Origin: Nitrososphaerales archaeon
GTDB lineage: Archaea; Thermoproteota; Nitrososphaeria; Nitrososphaerales; JACPRH01
NCBI GenBank assembly: GCA_030745655.1
Contig: JASLOE010000001.1
Location: forward strand, 5,351-69,350
Length of the DNA: 64,000 nucleotides
Reading direction: 5' to 3'
A model generated the notes under the pieces. The model was not told the DNA's origin. It saw only the letters and a program-made list of their open reading frames with translations, and searched no databases. Numbering within the stretch: the first letter of the stretch is position 1; every line of letters starts with the position of its first letter. The translations under genes and the position numbers were made by a program. Below, in pieces: positions 1 to 37,086 of the stretch.

Positions 1-1503
1 GAGTTACATTAAGCTTATAGTCATTACCGTTTTCAGCTAAGTTCAATATTTCTATTGCTAGCTTGTTGAGATTAGCATCAGGTTCAGTTACCGAAAGTAC
101 TGCAGGTACACTTGAAGCTGGAGCATAGCTCGCTGCATCAAATGCTACGGATGCTGCAGTCCTCGATAGACTAAATGATGTTTCTGAGTAATGACTTGCT
201 GTAATCGAAACAGGGTCATAGTAAGTGGCTGCAACAGAAGCAGCACTACCCATAGGCACTACTATACCAAGAGCAGCAGTACCGTTCCCTGAAAGGATCG
301 GAGTGTTGCCCGTAGCATTATGCGTAAAGGATACTACACCTGTGAAATTACCAGAACTTATTGCGGTTTCAGCAACAGTAAGGTCTCCAACTAAGGAGGT
401 TGTCCCTACTGTAATTGCGAGATGAACTGTGAAATTGCTTATTGCTGCAGTTGTTCCAGGAGTGTCTCTAGCTAGACCATTTAGATTTCTGTCTTCATCA
501 AGTAATTGTACTGTTACACCAGTAGTGAATGTTCCTGTTGATGAAAGAGCACTGATAACACCATCTGTAGATCTTATTTGAACATCTACAGAGCCTGGTG
601 AGGCTGTATTACCGGTATCGTCATCAGTTACTGCGACGGTTATTAAATCACCATGTGCTTCTGCAATGGTGGTTAAGCCGACGCTTAAGGTAAAGATTCC
701 TGTGTTTACCCCGGTCTCTGTGAAGTTACCCATCCCATTTACAACTGTCTGTGCTACCCCATTCAAACTAAGGGCTAGACTAGAATAGTTGTAGTTTCGT
801 AGGGCTGATGTATCTGCTACAGTTGGATCCAAGTTTTCAGTTGGATCTGTGACCGTGATAGACAAAGTTGCATTTATTGGTGCTGTAGATCGATCAGCTG
901 TGACACTTGCAGCTTTTGTGTTTGCATGAGCAAGTGTGACAGTTTCACTTCTTTCTTGATATGTAATCACTACAGCTGTATCAGCAGTAGCGACTGTGAA
1001 CATTTGGATGAATGGCCATTGACCAGAATCAGTACACGCTGTACTGTTTATGGCCTCATCGCCACCTTGGCAGGAAGATGCTGAAGGTGCAACAGATGGG
1101 ATACTTGATCCAACTCTGTACCTATCAGAATAACCTGCGCCTCCTTCACCACCGTCTCCACCGACCCTTGAGTCTGCAGTTACGTTAGCTATGTAGGCAA
1201 CAAATGTTCCCGCAATAGGGGTTTTAGTCATATTGATTACTTCTTGACCGGCAAGATCTGTAACGACTGAAGGGAATGAACCGGTAGCGATACCAGCATC
1301 AACAACCCTCACCTCGATTACATTATCTTCACCAAGTTGTGTCTGCGTTACACTCAAGTAGGAATTCGCAGCTGCTGCAGGCATAACTACAAGTGGTATT
1401 AGGCCTACAAACATGCTGGTTATGAGTATAGTCGCAAGTGCGAGTGATGTCGTTTTCGTTATAATGTTAGTTCGTACTTTATTATTTACTTTAAGAGAAT
1501 TCA
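1..1503 (-). CDS. Large secreted or surface-anchored glycoprotein candidate (S-layer-like); the 3' end runs off the window
   Basis: The minus-strand frame is open from the ATG at 1503 to the window edge. Hand translation gives MNSLKVNNKVRTNIITKTTSLALATILITSMFVGLIPLVVMPAAAANSYLSVTQTQLGEDN... The N-terminus has a hydrophobic signal/anchor followed by an Ala run. The rest is T/S/A/G/V-rich with many N-x-S/T sequons. It is missing from the ORF track only because there is no stop codon in the window. Confidence 0.6.
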
Positions 1504-1726
1504 TATTACGTTCTCGGCAACTTAGCTTTCAACATCCATATTTAACGTTTATGGACAATTCATCCATCTTTTAGGCTGAATTACCTCTATTTCAGCCCTC
1601 TTTGCCTGAAACTCCTTAATAAAGGCTCAGAATTATTCAAATACATATAAGGGTTATGGTTAGAGAATCCAGTAACCTCTTCCCACACCAAGAAAAATAA
1701 AAGTATCTATTAAATAATACACTGAT

Positions 1727-3968: not shown

Positions 3969-4685
3969 TTAGTCTAATTTTGCTTCAATCAGTGCACCCC
4001 ATTTTGTCCACATTTCGTCTTTAAAACCACCACCCTCTGGAAGTTTAGAGACATTTACATTATTCTCTGGAATCAATTCTTTTAATAACGCCTCATAGTT
4101 CCTCCGCCAGTGTCTCTCGTAAACTCCAAGAGAATTTTGTGAGTCAAAAGAATGCCACTCTACAAAATAAATTCTCCGCCGAGCAATTCTGACCATATCA
4201 TTCACTACTTTCCTAATTTTATCTGGACCAATATACATCAGAACCGCATCTGTAAACACAATATCAAAACTATCATTCAAAAACGATTCGAGATCATCTG
4301 CTTTTCCCACTGATAGCTTTACGTTCAATTTACCTTCTTGTTTTAACCATTCGTTTCCGTTTTTTACCGACCATTTGTTGATATCTACACCAGATAAATC
4401 TGCTTCCGGAAATTTCTCAGAAAGCAGATATAAATTAGGTCCATCGCCGCAACCTACTTCAAGCAAATTCTTAATTTTACGAAATTTTGAGATTTTCGCA
4501 ACAAGAAAGCCTCGATGGGGATGATTTAGGGTAGTGGAACCACTTGCATAAGAAGAGGATTGGGAAGCCCATCGTCTCTCTTCAAATTTTGTACCAACAA
4601 GAAATCCTATAATTGACATGAAACCACGGTAAGTCCACCTCACAATTCGATACATTATGGCATACCTTCTTAGAAAAGATATCAA
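3969..4685 (-). CDS. Class I SAM-dependent methyltransferase
   Basis: Motif I LLEVGCGDGPN and a downstream FDIVFTDAVLMY. It is the last gene of the minus-strand glycan operon. The start may be an internal Met. Confidence 0.75.
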   Translation of the reverse strand: MISFLRRYAIMYRIVRWTYRGFMSIIGFLVGTKFEERRWASQSSSYASGSTTLNHPHRGFLVAKISKFRKIKNLLEVGCGDGPNLYLLSEKFPEADLSGVDINKWSVKNGNEWLKQEGKLNVKLSVGKADDLESFLNDSFDIVFTDAVLMYIGPDKIRKVVNDMVRIARRRIYFVEWHSFDSQNSLGVYERHWRRNYEALLKELIPENNVNVSKLPEGGGFKDEMWTKWGALIEAKLD

Positions 4686-4709
4686 TTGTTATCTCAATCT
4701 AGTTAAATT

Positions 4710-5816
4710 TCAATTATAGAAGTTGTGAAGAGAATCAACAACAAAGCCAACATCAGAATCACTGAGCTCAGGGTGCAACGGAAGTGAAAGAACTTCACGA
4801 GAAATCTGTTCTGTTAAAGGTAGATTAAAGTGATCTAAATTCAGAGCTTTGTGTTTATGAAGAGGTTTAGGCCAAGAAACTAAAATTTCTATCCCTTGAT
4901 TGCGAAGATAGGCCACAAGTTCGTCCCGATTATTGGAACGGATCACATAATTTTGATAGACATCATAAAAGTTACCTTCGTTTGGTGCAGGAGGCAATTG
5001 CAACGAAGCTAGGTCGGATAACCCTTCATGGTAGAGGTTTGCTATTTCTCTTCGTCGTTCTATCCATTTGGGTAGGTGATTTAGCTTAATTTTCAGAATT
5101 GCGGCATGTAAATTATCAAGGCGACTATTGAAACCATGAAACAGAAATGCTCCGGTTTCTCTATCTTGGCCATGATCTCTAAGCAAGAATAACTTCTTGG
5201 CGATTTCCTTGTTATTTGTAACTATCATTCCACCATCTCCAAGAGTTCCTAAGATTTTTGCAGGATAGAAGCTGAAACAACCTGTCAAGCCAAAACTACC
5301 AGCTCTACGTCCTTTGTATCGTGCGCCTACTGCTTGTGCAGCATCTTCAATAATATGGAGACCATGATCAGATGCTATTTTCATTATCGTATCCATATCA
5401 CAGATTCTACCATTAAGATGAACAGGAATAATGCCTTTTGTTTTCTCTGTAATTGCTGCTTCAATACAACTTACATCAATATTATGATATTGGTCGATAT
5501 CAACAAGAACTGGCTTTGCATTACATTGAGAAATTGTTGATACTGTTGCAGCAAAAGTATGAGATACTGTAATTACTTCATCACTTTCAGTAATATTAGC
5601 AGCTTTTAATGATAAAAAGAGAGCATCTGTTCCGTTCGCAACTCCTATAGCATACTTTACATCCAAGAACTTGGCGAAATTCTTTTCGAATTCTTTAAGA
5701 TGCCTTCTAAGGATATAGTCACCACCAATTAGCACTTCCTGAATAACAGAATCAACCTCCGATTTGATCTTTCTATAGTGCTCAGGAAAATCTACAAAAC
5801 GGACTCGATACCCCAT
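4710..5816 (-). CDS. DegT/DnrJ/EryC1/StrS-family PLP-dependent sugar aminotransferase
   Basis: Family-typical sequence: GVANGTDAL, IIEDAAQAVGA, and the SFYPAKILG lysine region; 368 aa. Confidence 0.9.
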   Translation of the reverse strand: MGYRVRFVDFPEHYRKIKSEVDSVIQEVLIGGDYILRRHLKEFEKNFAKFLDVKYAIGVANGTDALFLSLKAANITESDEVITVSHTFAATVSTISQCNAKPVLVDIDQYHNIDVSCIEAAITEKTKGIIPVHLNGRICDMDTIMKIASDHGLHIIEDAAQAVGARYKGRRAGSFGLTGCFSFYPAKILGTLGDGGMIVTNNKEIAKKLFLLRDHGQDRETGAFLFHGFNSRLDNLHAAILKIKLNHLPKWIERRREIANLYHEGLSDLASLQLPPAPNEGNFYDVYQNYVIRSNNRDELVAYLRNQGIEILVSWPKPLHKHKALNLDHFNLPLTEQISREVLSLPLHPELSDSDVGFVVDSLHNFYN

Positions 5817-25498: not shown

Positions 25499-26724
25499 CT
25501 ATCAGCTATCCGTCGAGTAACTGCAACCCTATTTCCAAGTGCAGCACAAATTGGTCTCTTAAGGTTCACTGAGATTATATCTCCATTTATTGATCCAACA
25601 GGTCCTAACGTTACCGCTGTTCCTATATTCAAACGCAAAACCTCACCTTTTCGTATCTTTTCTACTTTCATCATTTCTGGAGCTCCCACGGCTTTATCAA
25701 GGAGTTGAGTCTCAATTTTGAGTGAACTATGTACAGGTGGCAGCTCATTTGGAAGTCCAACTACAGATCCAAGGAGGTTATCTGCTCTTGTGATAGATGG
25801 ATCCAATGTTGTGCCTAAAGCAATTAATCCTCCTGTTTTAACATTTTTTACCAACCCAACACTTGTTCCTAAACTTGCGATAGTTGTTTTAATAGCATTA
25901 TATTTCTTAGTTTTTTCATCTAGAAGACCAGGTTTAAGAACAATTTCTTCACCAACATTGAATTCTCCTTCAATTAGGGTCCCACCAATTACCCCTCCTC
26001 GAATTTGGGTAATGTTCATGCCGGGTCGATTCACATCAAATGACCTTAGAGTCTGCATTAGTGGTTTCTTTTTTGTTTTTGTTAATGGGGTAGGGATGGA
26101 TTCTTCAATTGCCCCTATTAATGCATCTAAATTCAATTTGTGATGACCAGATACAGGAATAATAGGAGCATTTTCAGCGACAGTTCCCTTTGCAAACTTC
26201 TGAATAGCTTTATAGTTTCTTTCAGCTTCTTGATTAGTTACAAGGTCTAATTTGTTCTGCGCTATTACAATATGTTTCATTCCTAGCATCTGAAGACTTA
26301 GAAGATGCTCCCGTGTTTGAGGTTGAGGGACATCTTCATTTGCAGCTATAATTAGTATTGCACCATTCATAACAGCTGCACCCGAAAGCATAATCGCCAT
26401 GAGACTTTCATGTCCCGGTGTATCTACAAAACTAACTACCCGAGACAATTTTGCTTCGTTTCCGCATTTAGGGCAAGATGATGTAGTTGAGTAATTTTCA
26501 GGTGGATTACATTTACCACATTTGTAAAATGCTGCATCAGCATATCCCACCTTTATGGTGATACCACGTCGTAATTCTTCACTATGCGCAGATGTCCATA
26601 CACCAGTTATTCCTTCAACTAGCGTAGTTTTACCGTGGTCTACGTGACCAATAGCACCAATATTTACTTCAGGTTGGTGGGGTAATCTATTTCTTTTGAG
26701 CATGGTGCTATCCTTGGCTGTCAT
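25465..26724 (-). CDS. eif2g: Translation initiation factor aIF2 gamma subunit
   Basis: G1 motif GHVDHGKTTL, a zinc knuckle CGKC..CPKCG, and DTPGHE. Confidence 0.95.
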   Translation of the reverse strand: MTAKDSTMLKRNRLPHQPEVNIGAIGHVDHGKTTLVEGITGVWTSAHSEELRRGITIKVGYADAAFYKCGKCNPPENYSTTSSCPKCGNEAKLSRVVSFVDTPGHESLMAIMLSGAAVMNGAILIIAANEDVPQPQTREHLLSLQMLGMKHIVIAQNKLDLVTNQEAERNYKAIQKFAKGTVAENAPIIPVSGHHKLNLDALIGAIEESIPTPLTKTKKKPLMQTLRSFDVNRPGMNITQIRGGVIGGTLIEGEFNVGEEIVLKPGLLDEKTKKYNAIKTTIASLGTSVGLVKNVKTGGLIALGTTLDPSITRADNLLGSVVGLPNELPPVHSSLKIETQLLDKAVGAPEMMKVEKIRKGEVLRLNIGTAVTLGPVGSINGDIISVNLKRPICAALGNRVAVTRRIADRWRLIGSGIII

Positions 26725-31628: not shown

Positions 31629-31823
31629 TTATTTCTTACTCTGGGGTTTTTGATATGCAGCTGTCCATTTATACTTTCTAGGATCTCTCTTTAGCTTTTG
31701 GGTATTTTTTCTACATTTGGATGAACAAAAATGTTGGATAACACCATCATTTCTGATGTAAGTAATACCATAAGATGCAATTATATCGTCTCCACAGAAG
31801 GCACATTTTTTTTCGCTTAACAT
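31629..31823 (-). CDS. rpl24e: Ribosomal protein L24e (eL24)
   Basis: CAFCGDDI...FCSSKC zinc motif; 64 aa. Confidence 0.9.
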   Translation of the reverse strand: MLSEKKCAFCGDDIIASYGITYIRNDGVIQHFCSSKCRKNTQKLKRDPRKYKWTAAYQKPQSKK

Positions 31824-31832
31824 TCTTTAGGC

Positions 31833-32039
31833 CTACTTTATCTTCTTGGCCTCTCGTTCTGTCTCTCTCAACATAAGGATATCTTCAAGACGAATTGGAC
31901 CTTTTACATTCCTTGTTAGGATTCTACCTTTTTCTGACCCTTCAAGTAGTTTGACACGAACTTGAGTTATTTCACCAGCTACTCCAGTTCTTCCAACAAT
32001 CTGAATTACTTCAGCGGGAGTTATTCTCTCCTCCGACAT
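31833..32039 (-). CDS. rps28e: Ribosomal protein S28e (eS28)
   Basis: [38 protein letters not shown]. Confidence 0.9.
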
Positions 32040-32059
32040 TCTCAGATCTCTTCCTGCAA

Positions 32060-32434
32060 TTAACCTTGTCTGATCTTCTTGATAGCAGTCACTATCTGTT
32101 CTATAAGACCTTCAGATTCGCCAGTTTCGATAATGCAAGCCGCAGCTGCACCTAAATCTATTCCTAATACTGGTCCCATCTGGGATCTAGTTGGAACATA
32201 TATGAAAGGTATACTTCTCTCGTCACAGAGAATAGGTAAATGCGCCACTACTTCTGGGGGCTCAATGTCCTCTGCAATAATAACTAGTTTAGCTAGATTG
32301 CGCTCTATTGCCTTTGTAGTTTCATTTGTTCCTTTCCTAATCTTACCAGTCTGCCTAGCTTGCCTTAAAGCTTCATATCCTGCTTCAGCTATCTCTTTTG
32401 GTGTTTCAAACTTTACAAAGTAAGGTTTAGACAT
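32060..32434 (-). CDS. rpl7ae: Ribosomal protein L7Ae (K-turn binding protein)
   Basis: [42 protein letters not shown]. Confidence 0.95.
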
Positions 32435-32479
32435 TAACTTATTGCCTCCATAATATTGGCAAAATTTTCTCTTTTTATT

Positions 32480-32500
32480 GGGTTCATCTGCTCATCACCC
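32480..32500 (-). promoter_or_regulatory. Candidate K-turn/K-loop hairpin in the L7Ae 5' leader (autoregulatory L7Ae binding site)
   Basis: The minus strand reads GGGU-GAU-GA-G-CAGA-U-GA-ACCC. That is a 4-bp C stem (GGGU/ACCC), a 3-nt bulge, tandem sheared G.A/A.G, a G.U pair and a 4-nt loop. It lies 46-66 nt upstream of the L7Ae ATG and downstream of a TTTAATTA TATA-like element. Confidence 0.45.
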
Positions 32501-32535
32501 TTGCGACTTGGCGATACTTATCAGGTAATTAAAGC

Positions 32536-32796
32536 TTATCTACCCAAAAACGGTTGGGTAATATTATTTTTCAGTATATTCCAATCAATGATTTTGGCTT
32601 TTTCAGTGGTCTTGATATAGGTTAAGACCTGTGTTAATGCCTCTCTGAGTAATTCGCCTACTTCACTTTCTAACTCTCTTCGTTTGTTCTCAATATCTAT
32701 CGGTGCCATGAATCTCATTCTGCACATCTTGGATGCAGTACACTTCTTGGAGGTCATCCTAGCCCATCTGCAATACAAATATTCTGATCTGAACAT
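32536..32796 (-). CDS. Hypothetical small protein (possibly only 57 aa, from the Met at 32709)
   Basis: The ORF has a helical, charged C-terminal half (IENKRRELESEVGELLREALTQVL). I recognise no motif and the start is unclear. Confidence 0.3.
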   Translation of the reverse strand: MFRSEYLYCRWARMTSKKCTASKMCRMRFMAPIDIENKRRELESEVGELLREALTQVLTYIKTTEKAKIIDWNILKNNITQPFLGR

Positions 32797-32832
32797 CTTT
32801 CTCCATCATAACCAACTTATAGTTTGCTGCGG

Positions 32833-33885
32833 CTATTTGTACCAATCTAAGCTATCTGTAACGTACGTCAAGAGCGAGTCGAAGAACTTCTTCGCTTCAC
32901 CCGTCATCTTCACCTGCATCATTAGTTCTTGGGCCTTTTCCGCATGAAACCTTGACCTCTCCTTCGCAGCGTCAAGTGCTCCACAGGTCGTTATGCCTCG
33001 CCGGATAACTTCTAGCTCTTCGCCAGATATTCGCCGTTTAGATCCTATGCTTCTGAGCAGTTTCAACGTTTTATCATCAGCCATCTTCAAAGTGTAAACG
33101 ATGTGCAAAGGCTTTTTCCCCCTCAGAATGTCCCCCGCAGGCTCTCTGCCATACTGCTCCTTGGATGTGAAGGTATCAATAATATCGTCCTGAATGTCGA
33201 AGGAATAACCTATATTCTCAGCAGCTTCAGATAGGATAGGTATATCCTCTTCAGGCGCATCTCCCAACATAGCACCTATGAGAATCGTAGTCTTGAATAG
33301 GGATGCCGCCCTCTTTGAAGCCATGGTGTACCACTCTTCAACATCTGGCTCTTTGTACTCGAACAGTAGGTCGAGTATCTGAGACTCATTTACCCGCAAG
33401 AAATCTTCATTCAATAGATCCACCGCCTTCGCTACTTTACTTCTTTCGAAGCCTGATGAGAAGAATTTCTGAACAGCCAAGGTATAAGATATATCCCCCG
33501 TGAAGACCGCGACTCCTTTTCCCAACCTCTCATCATGACTCTCAAATAGTCCCTGAAACACCCTTCCTCCACGCCTAAAATCCTCTCCGTCTACCAGGTC
33601 GTCATGCAAAAGAATACTATGCCTATACAACTCGATACCAGTACAAGCTGAAAGTATGGCATCATCTATACCGCCTCTGTAGCCAGAGTAGGTGATAAGC
33701 GTGTACGTTGATGCAAGCCTCTTACCTTTCCTTAGAATATACTCAGCTAAGCTACTGTAGACTCTATGTATAAACGGGTGATACTGTTCAGATTCTGTTT
33801 CAAGTCTAGAGAAGTGCTCCTTAAGATGCTCCTCAATCATTAGGCCAAATCTATCGGCAGTCTTAACCCATTTCAAAGCTACCAC
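32833..33885 (-). CDS. trans-Polyprenyl diphosphate synthase (GGPP synthase / IdsA-like)
   Basis: First Asp-rich motif LLHDDLVDGEDFRRG and second FDIQDDIIDTF. G+C is markedly higher than in flanking genes. The start is the GTG at 33885 or the ATG 15 codons downstream. Confidence 0.9.
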   Translation of the reverse strand: MVALKWVKTADRFGLMIEEHLKEHFSRLETESEQYHPFIHRVYSSLAEYILRKGKRLASTYTLITYSGYRGGIDDAILSACTGIELYRHSILLHDDLVDGEDFRRGGRVFQGLFESHDERLGKGVAVFTGDISYTLAVQKFFSSGFERSKVAKAVDLLNEDFLRVNESQILDLLFEYKEPDVEEWYTMASKRAASLFKTTILIGAMLGDAPEEDIPILSEAAENIGYSFDIQDDIIDTFTSKEQYGREPAGDILRGKKPLHIVYTLKMADDKTLKLLRSIGSKRRISGEELEVIRRGITTCGALDAAKERSRFHAEKAQELMMQVKMTGEAKKFFDSLLTYVTDSLDWYK

Positions 33886-34156
33886 AATACAGTATCTGTG
33901 AATTACGTATAAACATGGTGATACCTACTTTTGAATAATAGTAGAGATAGCATTATACTTCTGAACCTAAATAGTCTTCAGTCACGCTTCTTAGTGAATA
34001 CTTTACGTCTTCGCATAGTCTTCAGGACTGTTTTCTTTTTTGCTGCTACAGCTGTAGCTATTATTGTAATGCCCGTGACCATTACTGCCACGTATGTTAC
34101 GGTGGCCGATTGACAGACTTCTTCAGTAACTTCTTTGGTCGTCGTTATTGTCTTAG

Positions 34157-34294
34157 CGGGCCCGCTGGGATTTGAACCCAGGATTTCCGGCTTCGGAGGC
34201 TTACACATCTCTTCAGCGCCCTAATCCTTTCTATAGTTACCTTGGATTCCATCAGCTAACTATTCTAGGTGAATACTGACTAGGCCACGAGCCC
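34157..34294 (-). tRNA. tRNA-Arg (anticodon CCG) interrupted by two non-canonical introns; no encoded CCA
   Basis: Hand-folded cloverleaf. Acceptor GGGCTCG/CGGGCCC; D stem GCCT/GGGC; D loop AGTCA^GGATTA. Anticodon stem CTG^GC/GCCGG; loop CTCCGAA; variable AAATC. T arm CTGGG-TTCAAAT-CCCAG; discriminator G. The intervening segments are 34228-34276 (49 nt, in the D loop) and 34201-34213 (13 nt, position 29/30). Confidence 0.75.
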
Positions 34295-34453: not shown

Positions 34454-35179
34454 ATGAAAAGTAGAATGATGAAGTGTTTTGCACTAGATGTTGATGGGAC
34501 AATAGCTGATAATGAAGGACACCTAGACCTTGAAGCAGCATCTATGTTGAGGAGTCTTGCAAAATTAGGATATCAAATAATATTTGTAAGTGGTCGTTCT
34601 GCATGGGAACTCATTATTCTGGCAAAATATTTAGGTACTTCTTTGGTATCGGTTGGAGAAAATGGTGGAGTTTTATCCACATCTCCTCTAGATATTCAGG
34701 TACTTGGAGATAAATCAAAAACTGAAACGGCTTATGATTATCTTTCTAATAAAATAAAAGGGGTTGAAATAAAACCAACAATGCCTCGCTTCACGGAAGT
34801 TGTATTAAAAAGAAATTTCGATATAGAAAATGGGAGAAAACTGTTGTCTGAGAACAATATGCCAGTGAATCTCATCGATAGTACATTTGCATATCATATC
34901 ACCGATAAAACGGTCAATAAAGGGACAGGGTTAAAGTTGGCACTTGAAAAACTCAAGATTGACCCTGCAGAAACCATAGCAATTGGAGATAGTGATACAG
35001 ATATACCAATGTTCAAATTATGCAGATATAGTATAGCAACAGGAAAACCTACAAATGGTGCAAAAGAGACTGCCAATTATACTGTAAATAGTAATCCGGG
35101 TGAAGGGCTTGTCGATGCTTTCCAATTATCTTTCCAAAAGATCCTGAATACAAACCTTGAGGAGGAATTAAAAAAATGA
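34454..35179 (+). CDS. HAD-IIB (Cof-type) phosphatase, archaeal phosphoglycolate phosphatase-like
   Basis: Motif I ALDVDGTIAD, FVSGRS and motif IV GDSDTDIPMF. Confidence 0.8.
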   Translation: MKSRMMKCFALDVDGTIADNEGHLDLEAASMLRSLAKLGYQIIFVSGRSAWELIILAKYLGTSLVSVGENGGVLSTSPLDIQVLGDKSKTETAYDYLSNKIKGVEIKPTMPRFTEVVLKRNFDIENGRKLLSENNMPVNLIDSTFAYHITDKTVNKGTGLKLALEKLKIDPAETIAIGDSDTDIPMFKLCRYSIATGKPTNGAKETANYTVNSNPGEGLVDAFQLSFQKILNTNLEEELKK

Positions 35180-37086
35180 GTTTTAGAGACTTTAAAGATC
35201 AAGTCAAGAAATGTATGATGGACTCGCTAGCAATAAATGATCTACCCGAACTAAGTTTTGAACCAATAGAACCACCAAGACCTGAGTATGGAGATCTATC
35301 AGTAAGTGTCTGCATTACAATAGCTAACAAAACAGGAAAAAAACCTACTGAGGTAGCGGAAAAAGTAGCTTCAAAAATCAAAATACCGGATAATTCTATT
35401 ATTGATAAAATCTCTGTTCACCCACAGGGATACATTAATTTCACAAACAAATATGCAAAATACGTTTATCAAACTCTTAGGAGTGTACTTGATAACTCTG
35501 ATTACGGGAGAGTGCAAATAGGAAATAACGACAAAATTGGGATAGAACATACAAGCGTTAACCCGAATAAAGCTCTTCATTATGGCCACTTGCGAAATGT
35601 TGTTCTTGGAGATTCAATCAAACGAATCCTAGAATTCACAGGGCATAATGTCCAGATCTTAAATTATGTTGACGACTCAGGTTTGCAGGTAGCTGACCTC
35701 GTAGTTGGATTTAGGCAAGCAGGTTTTCCCCTTGAACCAACAGGAAATATGAAGTTTGACCAATATTGTGGAGATATAGTTTATGTAAAAATAAACGAGT
35801 TGTATAACTCTAGAAAAGATCTAATAGAAGCCCAAAAAAAAGTTCTCCAAGAGCTTGAACAACAAGAAAGTGAAATAGCCAAATTCTCACATAAGATTAC
35901 TGGGCGAATCTTAAGAGAGCAACTCAAAACCTGTTGGCGAATCGGAGCACGATATGATCTTCTTAATTTTGAATCCCATATTCTTCAAACAAATATGTGG
36001 AACGACATTTTTTCTCAACTCAAATCAAAAACTTTAGTTGAAAAAGTATCCAACGGTAAAAATAATGGATGTTGGATTGTCAGAATTAAAGGAGAAAAGG
36101 AGGGAGAAGAAAAAGTTCTTCTGAGAAGTGACGGTACAGCAACATACATGGCGAAAGATATTCCATATGCTGCCTGGAAATTAGGTATTATCAAAGATAA
36201 ATTTGGGTACAAATTATTCCCAGAACAACCAGAAGGAGCAAATCTTTGGGCTACTACCACTGAAAAAACTGATATGAACCATCCTGAATTTGCACCTTAT
36301 TCCAAATCAATCACCGTAATAGATGTAAGGCAAGGCAGATTACAGAGAATTATCGCAATAATACTTTCAAACCTTTCAGAAAAAGAAGATCTAAAACGAT
36401 ATATTCACTTAGGGTATGAAGTTGTATTTCTAAGTGGAAAAACTGCTGAAGAAATAGGTGTCACTTCTGAAAGAAAACAAATCGTAAGTATGTCCGGTCG
36501 AAAAGGCATCTATGTAAATGCAGATGAAGTTCTTGACAAACTACATAAAAGAGCATTTGAAGAAACAAAAAAGAGGAATCTCGATGAAACTGATGAATGG
36601 TTACATGAAACTGCTGAAAAAATCATGATTGCAGCAGTAAGATTTGATCTTCTGAAACAGGATTTAGAAAAGACCATTGTCTTTGACCTTAACCGTGCAC
36701 TTGCACTTGAGGGCGAAACTGGACCATATCTTCAATATACTTATGCCCGTGCAGCACGAATAATTGAGAAGTCAGGTATTACATCATCGATCAAGAGTGA
36801 ATATGCAAAGAAACTTACAGATTCATCTGAAATAGCTCTAATTAAAGAAATATCTAAATTCGATCTTATTGTAGAGGATGCTGCAAATAATCTTGCACCA
36901 AAAATTGTCGCACGATATTTGTTTCATCTTGTTTCACTTTTTAATGCTTTTTATGAAAAAATACCTGTGCTTAAAGAGAAGGATGAAGATACCAAATTAG
37001 GAAGAATTGCAATGATTAAAGCTTTTCAAGTTGTTGTTCGAAATGGACTTCAAATTCTTGGAATAAATGCAACTGAAAAGATCTGA
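35176..37086 (+). CDS. argS: Arginyl-tRNA synthetase
   Basis: HIGH-type motif NPNKALHYGHLRN, class I architecture and a C-terminal DALR anticodon-binding domain; 636 aa. It overlaps the HAD gene by 4 nt. Confidence 0.95.
   Translation: MSFRDFKDQVKKCMMDSLAINDLPELSFEPIEPPRPEYGDLSVSVCITIANKTGKKPTEVAEKVASKIKIPDNSIIDKISVHPQGYINFTNKYAKYVYQTLRSVLDNSDYGRVQIGNNDKIGIEHTSVNPNKALHYGHLRNVVLGDSIKRILEFTGHNVQILNYVDDSGLQVADLVVGFRQAGFPLEPTGNMKFDQYCGDIVYVKINELYNSRKDLIEAQKKVLQELEQQESEIAKFSHKITGRILREQLKTCWRIGARYDLLNFESHILQTNMWNDIFSQLKSKTLVEKVSNGKNNGCWIVRIKGEKEGEEKVLLRSDGTATYMAKDIPYAAWKLGIIKDKFGYKLFPEQPEGANLWATTTEKTDMNHPEFAPYSKSITVIDVRQGRLQRIIAIILSNLSEKEDLKRYIHLGYEVVFLSGKTAEEIGVTSERKQIVSMSGRKGIYVNADEVLDKLHKRAFEETKKRNLDETDEWLHETAEKIMIAAVRFDLLKQDLEKTIVFDLNRALALEGETGPYLQYTYARAARIIEKSGITSSIKSEYAKKLTDSSEIALIKEISKFDLIVEDAANNLAPKIVARYLFHLVSLFNAFYEKIPVLKEKDEDTKLGRIAMIKAFQVVVRNGLQILGINATEKI

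Follow-up and report, generated by a model that had tools for sequence, protein, structure and literature searches.

A GC-rich polyprenyl synthase gene beside tRNA-Arg in a low-GC Nitrososphaerales archaeon, best read as a fragment of a PQQ-dehydrogenase cluster

Is the polyprenyl (trans-isoprenyl diphosphate) synthase gene that adjoins a tRNA-Arg gene in this low-GC Nitrososphaerales archaeon native to its genome, and if not, from which arrangement does it derive and how might it have reached its present place? The question is raised by positions 32536-34156 of the 64-kb stretch of DNA analyzed here (64,000 nt, referred to as the window). A preliminary description of this region had proposed a compositional island, consisting of a synthase gene of about 50% G+C with small open reading frames (ORFs) on both sides, bounded by a tRNA as a potential integration target and acquired rather recently by horizontal transfer. 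According to our analysis, 32797-34156, possibly extending to 32552, is a small islet of foreign composition and a fragment of a GC-rich cluster of genes for pyrroloquinoline quinone (PQQ)-dependent dehydrogenases. Foreign origin is the best reading of the locus, and we hold it to be probable with moderate confidence.

Sliding G+C and codon usage analyses revealed that the compositional anomaly over the synthase gene is real. Hand counts of four 60-nt lines in the preliminary description (34, 31 and 29 G+C within the synthase gene and 18 in argS) were exact on recount, but the G+C content of the whole gene was 45.3% and not about 50%. The window has a G+C content of 35.6%, 1-kb windows over 32001-34000 reach 41-43%, and a 300-nt peak of 48.7% occurs at 32900-33199. 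Compared with a reference set made up of the 61 remaining ORFs in the window that encode 100 aa or more, the synthase gene deviates in overall G+C (z = 3.6) and much further in G+C at third codon positions (GC3), which is 0.487 versus a mean of 0.251 (SD 0.026, maximum 0.310; z = 8.95). GC1 and GC2 are ordinary, and the excess resides almost wholly at third codon positions. Among twofold codons, G-ending (0.61 vs 0.26) as well as C-ending forms (0.45 vs 0.25) are raised, and Arg is enriched relative to Lys (R:K of 23:25 vs 244:497). Ribosomal-protein genes of this kind of genome display no GC3 shift. High bulk G+C as such is not unique to the synthase gene, as window positions 1-1504 also reach 43%; there, the value is driven by amino-acid composition (GC2 0.51, GC3 0.273). 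On its minus strand, this region encodes part of a protein that is secreted or located at the surface and has a high content of Thr, Ala, Ser and Gly; GC3 of the gene is native. A Pfam search of this gene gave no match; the protein may be S-layer-like.

The features of the islet, all on the minus strand, point to its source. The synthase gene (32833-33885) encodes a PF00348 protein of 350 aa, or of 347 aa if a TTG start is used. A putative archaeal promoter element, a TTTATA box at 33913-33908, precedes the GTG start by 22 nt. Upstream of the gene follow an intergenic spacer of 92 nt (33886-33977) and a stump of a PQQ-dependent dehydrogenase gene (33978-34156), comprising the last 61 codons with the C-terminal membrane anchor and lacking a start. 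Over 1364 nt (32797-34160), the region aligns at 92.3% identity with contig L002, which represents a lineage with an intact PQQ cluster (designated C-type). On L002, a full-length gene for a PQQ protein of 706 aa, which matches the PQQ alcohol-dehydrogenase family, is followed by the synthase gene and another PQQ gene, all within a GC-rich cluster of about 20 kb. The stump is approximately 92% identical at the nucleotide level to the 3' end of the 706-aa gene, with a 1-nt indel near the end, and the translation of the stump ORF, which at 33978-34208 runs on into the tRNA, aligns to the C-terminus of the L002 protein. The spacer is conserved with L002 and travels with the synthase gene, as do 36 nt of 3' flank (32797-32832) that blastn and alignment identify as common to the copy in the PQQ cluster; homology to L002 stops at 32797. 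Since the remnant of the PQQ gene occupies the tRNA end of the block, we concluded that the synthase gene derives from the arrangement of the 706-aa PQQ gene followed by the synthase gene. The stump is joined directly to the discriminator base of the tRNA (34157), which forms the left edge of the block, and 4 nt (CCCG) are common to the tRNA and the PQQ gene. Truncation of a gene at a 4-nt microhomology on the tRNA side suggests illegitimate recombination or deletion of a larger PQQ cluster and not site-specific integration.

Less can be said for the right-hand side of the islet. Homology limits in relatives delineate a further 245 nt of 38% G+C (32552-32796), present only in window-type strains and in sibling strains designated D-type (L011, L012, L014 and L016), and missing from both the sister species and the PQQ cluster. 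These 245 nt hold an ORF of 86 aa (32536-32796), which has a GC1 of 0.30, is disrupted in the D-type strains, gave no match in Pfam, NCBIfam or PHROG, and is doubtful as a gene. Hence, the small ORFs described on either side of the synthase gene do adjoin the anomaly, but neither is a convincing gene, the one on the tRNA side being the PQQ stump. In the D-type, 672 nt with an ORF of 69 aa (L011 6780-7451) replace 33 nt of the window (32590-32622), between the synthase block and the promoter region of the gene for ribosomal protein L7Ae.

In the C-type lineage, the cluster comprises three or four PQQ genes together with ABC transporters and a solute-binding protein, and adjoins a row of HisRS, RFC and MCM genes. 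L025, an extended version of L002, gave GC3 values of 0.35-0.51 for the cluster, while the core genes HisRS, RFC, MCM and Hel308 have a G+C content of 38% and GC3 of 0.26-0.36. L002 as the donor genome with 42% G+C was therefore rejected, as the extended core has about 38% G+C and the cluster is a GC-rich island there. An MCM-based search identified contig L027 (36.3% G+C, GC3 0.243), on which the same core genes are 89% identical at the nucleotide level and no PQQ cluster is present at this site. Taken together, the L025 core and L027 indicate that the intact PQQ-synthase arrangement resides in a related but distinct lineage, and that the cluster is foreign to that lineage as well. Outside this group, the closest synthase (81% identity) is encoded on a Nitrososphaerales contig of 47% G+C. 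The edge of the C-type cluster (L025, at about 12200) coincides with the position of tandem tRNA-Gly genes (CCC, GCC) on L027 (6034-6237); no tRNA-Gly remnant was detected at the island edge in the C-type contigs. One C-type copy of the synthase, P0125, has been deposited at NCBI in a metagenome-assembled genome (MAG) of a 'Dehalococcoidales bacterium', where the GC-rich PQQ cluster was probably mis-binned by composition.

The locus is variable among relatives. D-type strains, which are 98.9% identical to the window in the core and 96.9% in the block, have kept both the PQQ stump and the synthase gene. In the sister species (L008, L010 and L013), with 85% nucleotide identity and synonymous divergence (dS) of 0.5-1.1 in the core, a GNAT gene and others lie upstream of the L7Ae gene and the synthase gene is absent. 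More distant orthologues on L005 and L006 (68-70% aa identity) are located beside genes for Tsr3, a UbiA prenyltransferase resembling digeranylgeranylglyceryl phosphate synthase (DGGGPS), and a V4R protein. The synthase gene occupies three different locations in near relatives. The comparison of synteny suggested in the preliminary description was in line with the proposed acquisition: the gene is missing at this locus in the sister species and occurs in varied contexts elsewhere.

High GC3 is not intrinsic to the gene family, because orthologues track the composition of their own genomes. GC3 of the synthase gene is 0.595 on L004 (47% G+C) and 0.593 on L005 (49%), and 0.330 on L006 (37%) and 0.276 on L028 (34.5%). 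In addition, the gene is still changing. With L002 as outgroup, polarized substitutions in the block on the window and D-type branches amounted to 26 GC>AT and 9 AT>GC changes (binomial p = 0.006 vs 1:1), compared to 32 and 26 in the flanking core with L008 as outgroup. Window and D-type differ by 3.1% in the block and by 1.1% in the core. The bias towards AT and the faster divergence of the block strongly suggest that the gene is out of compositional equilibrium and is drifting towards the composition of the host. The dN/dS ratio of 0.19-0.22 (0.19 vs the L002 copy) indicates that, as judged from sequence, the synthase is functional and under purifying selection. The dS of the synthase between window and C-type (0.21) is far below that of core genes between the window and L008 (0.51-1.13). 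A rough amelioration argument, with GC3 taken as 0.25 at equilibrium and as about 0.59 in the source, suggests that the time spent in low-GC genomes is shorter than the time since the split of the window and L008-type species.

The preliminary description placed a tRNA-Arg at the edge of the anomaly, and this was correct. The gene, tRNA-Arg(CCG) at 34157-34294 on the minus strand, was first found by direct reading of the sequence. It carries two non-canonical introns, one of 13 nt at position 29/30 and one of roughly 50 nt in the D-loop. Neither ARAGORN, with default or intron options, nor Rfam at gathering thresholds called any tRNA in the whole 64 kb; the Rfam tRNA model gave a sub-threshold match of 17.5 bits to the uninterrupted 3' half (34157-34221), and ARAGORN called tRNA-Arg(ccg) once both introns had been spliced out in silico. 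The complete lack of tRNA calls in 64 kb raises the possibility that further intron-bearing tRNAs are hidden in the window.

This tRNA has been used by an integrase element in sibling strains. On the MAG contig L001, the intact tRNA is followed by unrelated DNA, and an ORF of 443 aa on the minus strand (166-1497) that matches integrase family PHROG_1 (E = 1.6e-6) adjoins the tRNA. In D-type L011, a sequence of 21 nt (5230-5250) corresponds to the final 16 nt of the tRNA, with a single mismatch, and the 5 nt that follow, and in the D-type contigs this tRNA-derived sequence stands between another insert and the PQQ stump. The integrase-like ORF and the 21-nt remnant therefore indicate that an integrase element inserted in the 3' end of the tRNA, between the tRNA and the block, and thus that the tRNA is a genuine integration site and the synthase gene lies outside the element. 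The proposed role of the tRNA as integration target hence holds for the sibling strains, but the block itself is devoid of an integrase and of an attachment (att) repeat. Near 32400-32900, the best match to an att remnant was 9 of 16 nt, which is chance level. Just inside the D-type insert and beside the att remnant, L011 encodes an eRF1-like protein (4018-5040, plus strand, GC3 0.41) of the baeRF/acVLRF1-type ribosome-rescue family. At the contig end of L001 (1-93), a (TGTTAA)n repeat precedes 37 nt that exactly match a stretch within the aIF2-gamma gene, 8 kb away (window 26070-26106); this is probably an assembly artefact.

In the reading that we prefer, the synthase gene, probably together with a PQQ cluster, would have entered this group from a GC-richer Nitrososphaerales relative. 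Two routes to the present locus are conceivable. Illegitimate recombination of the microhomology type may have inserted a small fragment. Alternatively, a larger cluster may once have been located between tRNA-Arg and the L7Ae gene, with a deletion leaving only its last gene. In either case, the synthase gene would have been retained as the cell needs its product.

Several observations weigh against this scenario. No donor genome was identified among the sampled sequences, and the neighbor-joining tree is poorly resolved: it places the window and C-type copies nearest to the high-GC sequences P0002 and P0003 with a bootstrap value of only 27%. L027 is linked to the species of the window by composition only, and the synthase genes of the host were viewed in the window only, such that a second, native copy may be present elsewhere. 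The synthase dS of 0.21 lies within the range of core dS between L025 and L027 (0.19-0.73) and therefore fits inheritance from a common ancestor as well as passage between the window and C-type lineages. The direction of substitutions in block and core differed at only p = 0.08 in a Fisher test. Within 32536-34156 there is no integrase ORF; in the window, the tRNA 3' end has no second copy even when 3 mismatches are allowed, and a repeat search gave no such repeat either. Scans of viral contigs yielded no relative of the synthase and none of the integrase. Finally, high GC3 occurs in all close lineages sampled, with values of 0.487 in the window, 0.490 in the D-type and 0.46-0.51 in the C-type, and the anomaly and its acquisition are therefore not private to this genome. 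The claim of a recent horizontal acquisition accordingly stands in part: the foreign codon make-up, the absence from the locus in the sister species and the decay towards AT are in favor, but the event is not restricted to this genome.

Segmental duplication within one genome would also account for the PQQ stump. According to this explanation, the block is a 1.4-kb copy of the end of the genome's own PQQ cluster; the relationship would be one of paralogy, and the cluster would still be a compositional alien. As the stump demonstrates, the block is either a copy or a remnant of the arrangement of the 706-aa PQQ gene and the synthase gene. Window-type contigs (L015, L021) and C-type L024 originate from one Tara sample, and 4-19 PQQ dehydrogenases are reported per genome in heterotrophic marine Thaumarchaeota/Nitrososphaerota (HMT/HMN), whose G+C content ranges from 27.6 to 46.1% (PMC7300363; PMC13374868). 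However, the core flanking the C-type cluster differs from window-like DNA, both in its GC3 (0.26-0.36) and in its nucleotide identity to L027 (only 89%), and both copies were never encountered together on a window-type contig. The contigs that appear to link the two arrangements also look like products of assembly. L007, L023 (9297-10656) and L024 combine window-type and C-type synthase alleles in long, clean tracts. L007, with a C-type left and a window-type right flank, was rejected as an ancestral arrangement because its tract is identical to the window allele. L023 and L024 were rejected as gene-conversion mosaics, as they contain window-identical tracts and, where the alleles meet, have lost 2 nt and carry a frameshift. 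All three are probably assembly chimeras formed at the only sequence that both populations share, and were set aside. We consider duplication unlikely.

Vertical inheritance without any transfer would require that something specific to this gene, for example translational selection or locally biased repair, has raised its GC3. This explanation accords with a similarly GC3-rich copy in each close lineage sampled, with a tree that is not clearly incongruent, and with the aa identities of the synthase (81, 77, 71, 70 and 68%), which form a ladder resembling that of MCM (77, 73, 72 and 70%). It is at odds with the low GC3 of the orthologues in low-GC genomes (L006, L028), with the increase in both G-ending and C-ending codons, with the unshifted GC3 of the highly expressed ribosomal-protein genes, with the ongoing loss of G+C from the block, and with the three different locations of the gene in near relatives. 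The preliminary description had tied vertical inheritance to elevated G+C at the same locus in all relatives; the elevation does extend through the close lineages, but not to L006 and L028, and the locus differs. We regard this explanation as improbable.

A metagenome assembly chimera, in which the gene of a GC-richer organism was stitched into a low-GC contig, can practically be dismissed: although contigs L001 (MAG) and L003 (Tara) break near or inside the block and clear mosaics occur at the synthase gene in other contigs, each of the two junctions was recovered with 99.9-100% identity from at least six contigs of independent assemblies, made in different projects and by different assemblers (L003, L009/L017, L015, L018, L020 and L021), and with 97-99% identity from the D-type.

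The foreign islet favored here shares several traits with tRNA-associated genomic islands. The block has an atypical composition, lies directly at a tRNA 3' end, is variable among close relatives and carries metabolic cargo, and in sibling strains an element with an integrase has made use of this tRNA. In contrast to such islands, it measures only about 1.4-1.6 kb and lacks an integrase and att direct repeats; its tRNA-side edge is a truncated gene with a 4-nt microhomology, and the integrase element is located beside and not around the block. The source arrangement of the synthase gene is one of the PQQ clusters of heterotrophic marine Thaumarchaeota (PMC7300363; PMC13374868), for which horizontal transfer of PQQ genes has already been suggested (PMC7300363; PMC13374868). 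A polyprenyl synthase gene within a PQQ cluster, or its stump-bearing escape to the site between tRNA-Arg and L7Ae, was not found described in these two papers. Gain of a foreign gene at this locus would be a new example of a familiar, ordinary kind of event, to which the organism and the unusual clade of the synthase lend modest additional interest.

The encoded enzyme matches PF00348 over residues 42-287 (E = 3.5e-35; 121.8 bits vs a cut-off of 27). The first aspartate-rich motif (FARM; D95-D96-L-V-D99), R104-R105-G106 and the second aspartate-rich motif (SARM; D233-D234-I-I-D237) are invariant in 14 relatives, and since these are kept, the enzyme is predicted to condense isopentenyl diphosphate with allylic diphosphates, most likely to a prenyl diphosphate of C20-C30. 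Two other motifs, GKRxR(P) of region I, which binds isopentenyl diphosphate, and G(Q/E), defined in part after PMC9385802, deviate. Region I reads G54-K-R-L-A58-S59, with the second Arg replaced, and the second motif reads N166-E-S168-Q169; the two variants are retained throughout the clade. For assignment to a class of synthases, we used criteria from PMC9385802 and PMC4244643. In type-I geranylgeranyl diphosphate (GGPP) synthases, the residue five positions before the FARM is bulky and aromatic, and the FARM has no insertion (PMC9385802). Here, the FARM likewise lacks an insertion, but -5 is occupied by Ser90 (by Cys in some relatives) and a conserved Tyr87 is at -8, whereas Tyr or Phe stands at -5 in the aligned sequences of 1WY0, 5JFQ and 6KD7. 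Type-III enzymes carry small residues at -4 and -5 and a conserved His two residues before G(Q/E) (PMC9385802); the window enzyme has Ser at -5 but Ile at -4, and Asn166 instead of His two residues before S168. No NCBIfam equivalog for polyprenyl synthases passes its cut-off (GGPP_syn, 103 bits vs 500; IdsA_Meth, 116 vs 468), and the best matches in PDB are weak (E = 1e-23 to 1e-22), the top one being 1WY0 (E = 1.5e-23). The enzyme resembles archaeal type-I GGPP synthases (Pyrococcus horikoshii 1WY0, Geoglobus acetivorans 5JFQ and that of Sulfolobus acidocaldarius) in its Pfam family (PF00348), in DDLVD without insertion, in DDIID and in RRG. Unlike these, it has Ser or Cys at -5, GKRLAS for GKRxRP and SQ for G(Q/E), and belongs to a separate clade, which is 55-60% conserved across non-ammonia-oxidising Nitrososphaerales, Bathyarchaeia, Hadarchaeota and Brockarchaeota. 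Of the earlier label of an IdsA-like, chain-length-determining enzyme, the family thus holds, but the type-I archaeal signature is absent.

The product is a matter of two competing predictions. The residues upstream of the first DDxxD, from which chain length was to be predicted, could be read and provide indirect hints only. The DGGGPS-like UbiA neighbor in L005 and L006 favors a role in lipid synthesis, and GGPP (C20) for ether lipids is, as predicted from sequence, slightly better than an even bet. A longer tail (C25-C30) for menaquinone, which we put forward as a tentative second candidate, would be compatible with the combination of a small residue at -5 and Tyr at -8, with the PQQ-cluster context and with the occurrence of menA in HMT genomes. 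The supplements of the HMT paper, searched for annotation of the synthase, list only menA and geranylgeranyl reductase. A bolder proposal, which we consider rather unlikely, is that the synthase is not a lipid GGPP synthase but the menaquinone tail-maker of an uncharacterised TACK-group clade (Nitrososphaerales, Bathyarchaeia, Hadarchaeota and Brockarchaeota), in which the floor that limits chain length has moved from -5 to -8. Together with the PQQ dehydrogenases, it would form a self-contained respiratory module, uniting dehydrogenase and quinone tail, that is exchanged among heterotrophic marine Nitrososphaerota and has been lost here except for its indispensable part.

The flanks of the islet are native. 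On the right, the first native gene is that for ribosomal protein L7Ae (32060-32434, minus strand, identified by Pfam), which is 85% identical at the nucleotide level in L008, L010 and L013 and heads the conserved row L7Ae-S28e-L24e-NDK-aIF5B. On the left, Pfam identifies a HAD-family phosphatase (34454-35179) and arginyl-tRNA synthetase (35176-37086), both on the plus strand. ArgS and its flank are 98.8% identical in nucleotides to a contig of ETNP2_MAG_84, the one MAG obtained in an ArgS search of genome contigs. The window further holds SMC and CTP synthase genes, and the matching contig L017 encodes the F420 genes cofC, cofD and F420 ligase. By its gene content, the host matches a low-GC heterotrophic marine Nitrososphaerales archaeon of the HMT/HMN kind, the relatives being marine and equipped with PQQ clusters. 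Between the window (31629-31823) and L011 (8217-8411), L24e has a dS of 0.23, compared to 0.00-0.05 for its neighbors; this rise may reflect a small recombination import or noise in a gene of 64 codons.

Heterotrophic marine Nitrososphaerota are abundant and uncultured, and their genomes are among the smallest of free-living archaea. As a by-product, the locus illustrates that intron-rich archaeal tRNAs escape standard tRNA finders. It also provides a population-resolved example of a gene surviving the decay of an island, in the form of a stump-bearing fragment at a tRNA hot spot. If it is true that the sole trans-prenyl synthase of such an organism is a recent PQQ-linked import, the step shared by lipid and quinone synthesis would lie in the flexible gene pool. 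This would bear on the reading of archaeal lipid proxies and on how heterotrophic respiration was acquired in these archaea.

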